A DNA stretch of 6,175 nt, taken from the IMG/VR virus record IMGVR_UViG_2579778894_000006. The stretch is one strand, 5' to 3'. The position numbers and the translations under genes are program-made. Below are positions 5,336 to 6,175 of this stretch, piece by piece (positions within the stretch are counted from its first letter, which is position 1; every line of letters starts with the position of its first letter). This DNA comes from a virus. Its lineage: Duplodnaviria; Heunggongvirae; Uroviricota; Caudoviricetes. The notes under the pieces were generated by a model. It was not told the DNA's origin and did not search any database. It saw only the letters and a list, made by a program, of their open reading frames with translations.

Positions 5336-5356
5336 GAGGAAGAAGGCGATGGCTAA
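5336..5356 (+). pseudogene. ninF: ninF 3' remnant (last codons and stop)
   Basis: …GAGGAAGAAGGCGATGGCTAA encodes …EEEGDG*, versus lambda NinF C-terminus …HEEEDDG*. It overlaps the ninG-type start at 5349 as in lambda. Sequence upstream of about 5335 is not ninF-like. Confidence 0.45.
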
Positions 5357-5915
5357 ACCAGCGCGAAGACGATGTAACCGTAAAAGAGAAGATTTAACTG
5401 TTAAAAGGATATTTGAGTTACTAAGTTTCGATAAATCTACCGGGGTATTTAGATGGAAAGTTCCCACTCAGGGAAGGATAGCATTAAATAGTGTTGCTGG
5501 AACTTTTGATTCCAACGGTTATTCAATGATCATGATAGATGGGCGTAGATATAAAACTCACGTCTTAGTTTTTTACATAACTCATAATCGTTGGCCTGCT
5601 GGTCAAATTGACCACGTTAATGGAATTAGGACCGACAATAGGCCAGAAAATTTAAGAGAATGCCTGCCAATAGAAAATTCAAGAAATATAAGGATCCGAA
5701 AGAATAGCAAATCAGGTTGCAGAGGGGTTACTTGGCACAAACGACAGAAAAAATGGAATGTTAGGCTAGGATTCCATGGCAAGAGTAAACACTTCGGATG
5801 CTTTGATGATCTGGAGTTAGCGGTACTAGTTGCTGAAGAAGCCCGAGATAAGTATTACGGTGATTTTTCCGGCAACGAAAGGAGCACTTATGCGAATCTA
5901 TCGAAGGAAATGTAA
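5349..5915 (+). CDS. HNH homing endonuclease with C-terminal AP2 DNA-binding domain, 188 aa, fused to the first 9 codons of ninG
   Basis: ATG at 5349 with GGAGGA upstream. The first 9 codons (MAKPARRRC) are the lambda NinG N-terminus; then …[21 protein letters not shown]…[48 protein letters not shown] (HNH_3-type motif) and …[49 protein letters not shown] (AP2-like). AT-rich relative to the nin backbone. Confidence 0.85.
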
Positions 5916-6175
5916 ATGTTGCAATGAATGGTTTATACCAAAATATCAAAATCAATATTGGTGTAATGAGATTTGTGGAACCAAGATAGCACTCGAACGA
6001 CGAAGTAAAGAACGCGAAAAAGCGGAAAAAGCAGCAGAGAAGAAACTACGACGAGAGGAGCAGAAACAGAAAGATAAACTGAAGATTCGAAAACTCGCCT
6101 TAAAGCCCCGCAGTTACTGGATTAAACAAGCCCAACAAGCCGTAAACGCCTTCATCAGAGAAAGAGACCGCGACT
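5890..6175 (+). CDS. ninG: NinG (Rap) recombination protein, 5' portion; continues beyond the window
   Basis: ATG at 5890 with AAAGGAG 7 nt upstream. Product [52 protein letters not shown]…[24 protein letters not shown] matches lambda NinG from about residue 7 onward. The first ~80 nt are heavily recoded and AT-rich; the rest is near-identical to lambda at the DNA level as recalled. Overlaps the HNH gene end by 26 nt in another frame. Confidence 0.85.

Follow-up and report, generated by a model that had tools for sequence, protein, structure and literature searches.

What is an endonuclease reading frame doing at the start of ninG (rap), and why does ninG begin again where that frame ends? 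The original prediction placed here a homing endonuclease gene (HEG), nested in the 5' end of ninG, with the ninG start duplicated and the site downstream recoded through co-conversion, so that the occupied allele would resist cleavage. We compared the window, that is, the whole stretch of 6,175 nt that was analysed, with ninG alleles from phages, prophages and bacterial genomes. The window represents the nin region of a Shiga-toxin-type lambdoid prophage, and its positions 5200-6175 are 98.9% identical to the Stx1-converting phages AU6Stx1 and SH2026Stx1. Its genes run from ren through two small ORFs, a Lar-like gene, ninB and a Dam-type methylase gene to ninE; after ninE come an AT-rich island (2505-5331), the endonuclease feature and finally ninG, which runs off the window end. 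The island has 34.5% GC against ~50% in its flanks and stands in place of ninX/ninF. Its 617-aa ORF (3008-4861, minus strand) matched only PHROG 9230, of unknown function, and had no match in Pfam, NCBIfam or PADLOC. All features described below from position 5332 onwards are on the plus strand.

The ninG start is duplicated around the endonuclease gene

The left junction shows how the endonuclease ORF is joined to ninG. Positions 5332-5348 hold the last ~17 nt of ninF together with the native ninG RBS, GGAGG (5335-5339), and differ from the ninF 3' end and ninG RBS of phages HK544 and HK630 by one SNP and a 1-nt indel; where the locus lies in a ninF-type context, the whole of ninF stands at this position. 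By its placement, this native RBS stretch now drives the endonuclease ORF. The ORF itself opens, as predicted, with the initiation region of lambda-type ninG: its first 29 nt, ATGGCTAAACCAGCGCGAAGACGATGTAA (5349-5377), encode the first nine codons of NinG (MAKPARRRC), fused in frame to the endonuclease, and match the ninG start of HK544 and HK630 at 29/29 positions. An exact match of this length cannot be chance. The copy is nearly invariant among the 64 copies of the locus that were compared, with a single SNP in one of them, and the left junction is identical in 64/64. Since the endonuclease ORF offers no alternative in-frame ATG, GTG or TTG before about residue 59, translation of the endonuclease depends on the RBS and ATG of ninG. 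An imperfect 20-nt direct repeat, AGACGATGTAACCGTAAAAG / AGAAGATTTAACTGTTAAAAG (TRF score 54), spans the left junction at 5367-5407; it may be microhomology from the joining event or a chance likeness in AT-rich sequence.

At the other end, the endonuclease ORF (5349-5915) closes with TAA at 5913-5915, and within its 3' end lies a replacement RBS, AAAGGAG (5878-5884), 5 nt before an ATG at 5890. The second ninG start with an RBS of its own was thus where the prediction had put it. The ORF that opens here (5890-6175, running off the window end) shares 26 nt with the end of the endonuclease ORF, in a different frame. On the 95 aa inside the window it scores 93.2 bits against the Pfam NinG profile (PF05766; cut-off 25.4), and it keeps the N-terminal cysteine pairs, which together place it in the NinG/Rap family. 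Full-length ninG in related loci measures 603-612 nt.

The first 84 nt of the restarted gene (5890-5973, 28 codons) form a divergent tract. Its identity to lambda-type ninG is ~57% (54/95 aligned columns), and its GC content is 28.6%, compared with 50.5% in the lambda counterpart. The prediction had described the first ~80 nt as heavily recoded. The divergence is real and extends over 84 nt; recoding is the wrong word for it, since the changes are not synonymous: lambda NinG has a different residue at more than half of the 28 positions. The tract retains the CX2C...CX3C cysteines, as does H-19B-type NinG. It is colinear with the head of H-19B-type ninG (CX2C) and not with that of the lambda type (CX4C), and CGAAGGAAATG is common to the tract and the H-19B type. 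Because of this colinearity, the AT-richness and the many residue changes, the tract has the look of a head from a separate, AT-shifted ninG lineage, brought in with the endonuclease gene. From 5974 to the window end at 6175 lambda-type ninG resumes, as had been foreseen, at ~98-99% identity to HK544, HK630 and lambda; this stretch is the polymorphic right flank.

The hexamer ATGTAA had been singled out as present at both junctions, and it does occur at 5372-5377 and at 5910-5915. Both copies encode Cys-Lys at homologous places in the two ninG starts; they are therefore part of the duplication of the ninG start and not independent evidence for the junctions. Deletion between the two copies is expected to give an in-frame ninG allele, and no such allele was found.

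Alignment with empty-site alleles defines what was inserted. Phages HK544, HK630, lambda and many more match the window solely at 5332-5377 and from ~5974 onwards, so the 596 nt in between (5378-5973) are a cassette that is absent from empty-site ninG and takes the place of nt 30-93 of the lambda-type gene. In this exchange 64 nt are lost and 532 nt gained on balance. The 64 nt removed from the empty allele are ~53% identical (35/66 columns) to the tract that replaces them. These alleles show the endonuclease gene nested within the 5' end of ninG and the ninG start duplicated, and they establish a presence/absence polymorphism at one precise site, with empty lambda-type alleles on one side and filled alleles with 64/64 identical junctions on the other.

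The endonuclease and its relatives

The 188-aa product matches PHROG 99, 'HNH endonuclease' (E = 1.4e-71), and RefSeq gives the gene the same name; NCBIfam holds no name for it. Residues 68-107 (5550-5669) form an HNH_3 catalytic domain (PF13392; 42.7 bits, cut-off 24.8) with the motif D88-H89 ... N101 ... N110, and D88, H89, N101, L102, R103 and N110 do not vary among the aligned homologues. With a profile score above the cut-off and the catalytic Asp-His and Asn present, the protein belongs to the HNH_3 class. Residues 123-171 (5715-5861) form a putative AP2-like DNA-binding domain, for which the Pfam AP2 score of 22.2 bits is sub-threshold (cut-off 33.3). An AlphaFold2 model of the endonuclease (pLDDT 87.8) renders this region as three strands and a helix with pLDDT above 90. 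The best Foldseek match in the PDB is I-HmuI (1u3e; prob 1.00, E = 0.012), followed by plant and apicomplexan AP2 domains (1gcc, 7wq5 and 7et5; prob 1.00, E = 0.03-0.1), and no PDB match reached E <= 0.001. Superposition of the model on 1gcc gave an rmsd of 1.3 A over 51 columns. Profile and predicted fold together make the protein a probable HNH-AP2-type endonuclease, with an AP2 part that lies below the Pfam cut-off.

The putative layout agrees with what is known of the architecture. Where PMC10448857 cites Magnani 2004, it recognises HNH plus AP2 as a homing-endonuclease layout, as the prediction had stated; the HNH-AP2 family treated there (Magnani et al. 2004; 'IPA-HNH' of ICP1-like phages) has an N-terminal HNH_3 and C-terminal AP2-type arrangement, as predicted for the ninG enzyme. 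I-HmuI is like the ninG enzyme in its HNH_3 fold; it is encoded in an intron and nicks one strand. The HNH/AP2 family is very large and at E <= 1e-3 counts 104,774 cluster representatives. Within it the ninG enzyme stands apart: no relative was found between 99% and 48% identity, other members reach at most 48%, and the nearest relatives are free-standing genes at unrelated phage loci. Alignments with homologues begin at residues 12-19 and end near residue 175, which leaves the ninG-derived MAKPARRRC head out of the family core. Confidence is low for the last ~13 residues, a tail whose codons run through the new RBS and on across the second ninG start.

Other kinds of element were considered and set aside. 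No Rfam family, group I and II introns included, reached threshold anywhere in the window, which speaks against a group I intron. An intein does not fit an ORF that stops at its own TAA while ninG starts up again at ATG 5890 in another frame, and no Pfam intein domain was present. As a candidate defence system the gene gave just a weak HNH motif match in PADLOC. With no Rfam intron, and with ninG provided with its own RBS and ATG, the gene lies outside any self-splicing intron, as a free-standing HEG does.

Linkage, spread and diversity of the cassette

In the collections searched, the tract and the endonuclease gene are strictly linked. Tblastn with the 35-aa head of the restarted NinG against 50,697 phage records returned HEG-carrying phages only, the next best matches being at 59-61% identity. 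Likewise, megablast with the tract alone against 5,426 complete E. coli genomes returned the same 538 genomes as the endonuclease gene. A degenerate DNA pattern for the tract peptide matched filled loci only in IMG/VR and nothing in 185,579 species-representative genomes, and protein databases, searched for a donor or a stand-alone tract, yielded E. coli fragments only. The prediction had named two observations that would speak against nesting. One, an uninterrupted ninG with the N-terminus of the tract, was found neither in phages, E. coli and IMG/VR nor among the species-representative genomes; the other, the endonuclease gene elsewhere without ninG codons, did not turn up either, and 64/64 copies carry ninG-derived codons.

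These searches bear on the idea that the tract is simply a third natural ninG allele, that an ordinary gene was inserted between ninF and ninG, and that the 29-nt head on the endonuclease ORF is incidental. The tract is indeed colinear with the H-19B-type (CX2C) allele, as a real ninG lineage would be. It was, however, never seen alone in any collection searched, the endonuclease has no other usable start codon, and the ninG head is retained in all 64 copies, which makes this account very improbable.

Two loci seemed at first to break the linkage, showing an endonuclease gene without the tract or a tract without the endonuclease gene (H130/L004; H262/L067); both proved to be filled alleles into which an IS had inserted. 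In all, three independent insertions of this kind (IS3-family and IS2), in different genomes, fall within a span of ~100 nt around the restarted ninG start, at window-equivalent positions just after 5884 (L004), ~5930 (L067) and ~5987 (L061). All three leave ninG separated or truncated downstream of the endonuclease gene; the region may be a hot spot of IS insertion.

The cassette is widespread. A survey for the same endonuclease at ninG found it, at no less than 99% identity, in 538/5,426 complete E. coli genomes and in up to 3 copies per genome, always with the same junction in the 64 copies compared, and it was also present in the chromosome of one Salmonella genome, Salmonella Infantis. 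Upstream of it stands the AT-rich island in 40/64 copies and an intact ninF, directly, in 24/64. The AT-rich island was invariably accompanied by the cassette in the rows examined.

Could this distribution have arisen without homing? The locus might be the fossil of a single illegitimate recombination event, which no longer homes here or never did, and which spread passively through nin mosaicism and EHEC clonal expansion. Both flanking genes are highly conserved and are freely exchanged between lambdoid phages by recombination, the 40 island-type copies share one context that is typical of O157/Stx1-type prophages, and neither close relatives nor a donor were found; one copy is frameshifted and three have IS insertions nearby. 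Several observations sit poorly with such a fossil. The cassette occurs in two genera, with several copies per genome in different contexts. It is carried on many ninF and ninG haplotypes, with exchange points 3-9 nt from heterology. The ORF has stayed intact in 61 of the 63 full copies, with its catalytic residues kept and a ratio of synonymous to non-synonymous changes that suggests constraint. On balance we judge passive spread of a fossil unlikely, although it deserves to be weighed seriously.

Counted by k-mers, the cassette stands in at least 13 upstream and 12 downstream contexts. The 24 ninF-type copies include at least 5 ninF haplotypes, and among the differences is a SNP 3 nt ahead of the ATG, the same one that distinguishes HK630 from HK544. 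On the right, the first polymorphism lies 9 nt beyond the cassette boundary, and the same right-flank haplotypes occur on HEG-less lambda-type alleles. The cassette itself carries 0-5 SNPs per copy. Mean pairwise difference is ~0.004 within it versus 0.03-0.10 in the adjacent ninG bins to the right, a contrast that is suggestive and not decisive because some ninG bins are as conserved as the cassette. Among 58 copies there are 3 haplotypes in the 84-nt tract versus 19 in the next 90 nt. Ordinary recombination could produce the same pattern of a monomorphic cassette on many flank haplotypes. Inheritance as a block follows from the lack of homology between the cassette and empty alleles, and does not require homing.

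The two exceptions to an intact ORF are a 1-nt deletion and the copy cut by an IS. The deletion, in L011, falls in a T6 run (window-equivalent 5568-5573), brings a stop at codon 76 and makes this copy the sole point-mutation pseudogene among the 63 full copies. Of the distinct SNPs in the endonuclease ORF, 13 are synonymous, among them the two seen most often, and 13 are non-synonymous. In L005 (236-433; window-equivalent ~5958-5970) the divergent tract is interrupted by a lambda-type patch, TGGTGGTGTTCTCCAGA, which puts a +1 frameshift into ninG; the same variant sequence is present on HEG-less alleles. This patch looks like a short gene conversion, an exchange between filled and empty alleles at the tract.

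Probable homing, its alternatives and its parallels

We consider it probable, if well short of certain, that the locus is a free-standing HNH/AP2-type HEG cassette in ninG (rap) whose divergent tract replaces the presumed target. Greater confidence is checked in part because ordinary lambdoid mosaic recombination could spread any insertion at the conserved ninF and ninG genes. As we picture it, the HEG lacks a start of its own and would be translated from the RBS, ATG and first nine codons of ninG; where ninF is present, it would be translationally coupled to ninF in the way that ninG normally is. Its 3' end would supply a new RBS, an ATG and 28 codons of an AT-rich ninG N-terminus. As the zinc-binding cysteines are kept, NinG would still be made, with a substitute head. 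Expression would accompany that of the delayed-early nin genes after infection or induction; a scan of 4700-6175 found no sigma-70-like promoter. The enzyme would then make its cut in lambda-type ninG, inside the replaced 64 nt or close by. Repair of the break from the occupied allele, via ninF and ninG homology on both sides, would copy the cassette in, and the occupied allele would remain uncut, its target being replaced by the divergent tract. Cleavage, the cut site, immunity and biased inheritance are the inferred parts of this scheme. The tract may reasonably have arisen by co-conversion, or else in a single illegitimate event; neither a donor allele nor a relative of 48-99% identity was found in the databases searched.

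A nuclease embedded among the delayed-early nin recombination genes, and to all appearances co-expressed with them, might also serve the phage. It could cut competing lambdoid phages or co-resident prophages at ninG, by way of exclusion or marker rescue, or work together with NinG/Rap in recombination, its mobility being a side effect. EHEC genomes hold many lambdoid prophages with ninG, and T-even HEGs cause marker exclusion (PMC2988022). Defence-system models, on the other hand, match no more than a weak HNH motif in the protein, and cutting a competitor at ninG is mechanistically the same act as homing; the data do not separate benefit to the phage from selfish spread. We regard service to the phage as a quite improbable explanation of the cassette.

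The homing reading has its closest precedents in T-even phages. Their free-standing HEGs, such as SegF at gene 56, SegG at gene 32 and MobE at nrdB, carry out 'intronless homing' (PMC2988022). Like the ninG gene, they lie outside an intron or intein, beside or within a conserved gene, and show presence/absence polymorphism; flanks that differ from the sensitive allele are expected to be co-inherited with them (PMC2988022). Unlike them, the ninG gene resides in a temperate lambdoid prophage and encodes an HNH_3/AP2 protein, not a GIY-YIG Seg or T4 Mob enzyme, and it lies inside an ORF on the host gene's own start. Insertion into coding regions has precedents as well: mobE splits nrdA of Aeromonas phage Aeh1 (genes-in-pieces), and mobA lies in the T4 topoisomerase gene 39/60 (PMC2988022, PMC3045599). 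In these, too, coding sequence is interrupted by a HEG, and the portion beyond it has gained a new start from which it is expressed. The upstream 'piece' of ninG, in contrast, is only nine codons long and is fused to the HEG itself, and NinG is not split, as the cassette encodes a substitute N-terminus. Bonocora et al. (2011, PNAS) reportedly described the HEG of mobA/gene 60 as paired with an adjacent sequence that disrupts the target. ShiLan offers a further parallel: its HNH HEG lies in a host ORF, shows no features of an intron or intein, and likewise prompts one to ask how the HEG comes to be translated. There the insertion keeps the frame of the host protein, with the HEG read in a different one, whereas the ninG HEG is read in the host frame from the host start and terminates, after which the host gene re-initiates. 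In the literature covered, which lay outside subscription journals, we found no description of a HEG in ninG. A free-standing HEG is already known in kind; what is uncommon here is that the host start is captured and a replacement head supplied.

If the enzyme is active, the locus would provide a genetically tractable homing system in lambda-type temperate phages, with empty and filled alleles at hand, lambda genetics applicable and a cassette of just 596 nt. It would also exemplify a neat route by which a selfish gene settles inside a host ORF, borrowing the start and giving a substitute head in return. In Stx1-type prophages Q and stx follow ~1-2 kb downstream of the cassette, which occurs in ~10% of complete E. 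coli genomes, so break-induced conversion could bias the recombination of Shiga-toxin phages. A bolder statement is that the cassette is an actively homing, self-immunising module: an intragenic insertion without intron or intein, which takes over the host's translation start and brings a replacement RBS, start codon and divergent N-terminal 'exon' that restores NinG while removing the target. In EHEC strains, with their many ninG-bearing lambdoid prophages, induction would then direct gene conversion around ninG-Q-stx between resident and incoming Stx-type phages. This we advance tentatively, rating its chances at somewhat below even. If the enzyme is inactive, the cassette is a well-defined mosaic joint, of use in typing the nin region.

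Some further features of these nin regions deserve mention. The Lar-like restriction-alleviation gene of the window (1162-1398, PHROG 599) overlaps the start of ninB (1355-1801), an arrangement that is ordinary in such prophages. Between the island ORF and the cassette lies a hexanucleotide tandem repeat, (TATTTC) x 9.8 at 5096-5154, whose copy number varies among genomes, with match lengths that differ by multiples of 3-6 nt. In L006, an E. coli prophage with the cassette behind ninF, two further HNH/AP2-type paralogues (37% and 41% identity) are present at 443-1054 and 1759-2286, one upstream of ninB and the other neatly between ninB and the Dam methylase gene; lambdoid nin regions may collect HEGs of this HNH/AP2 family.
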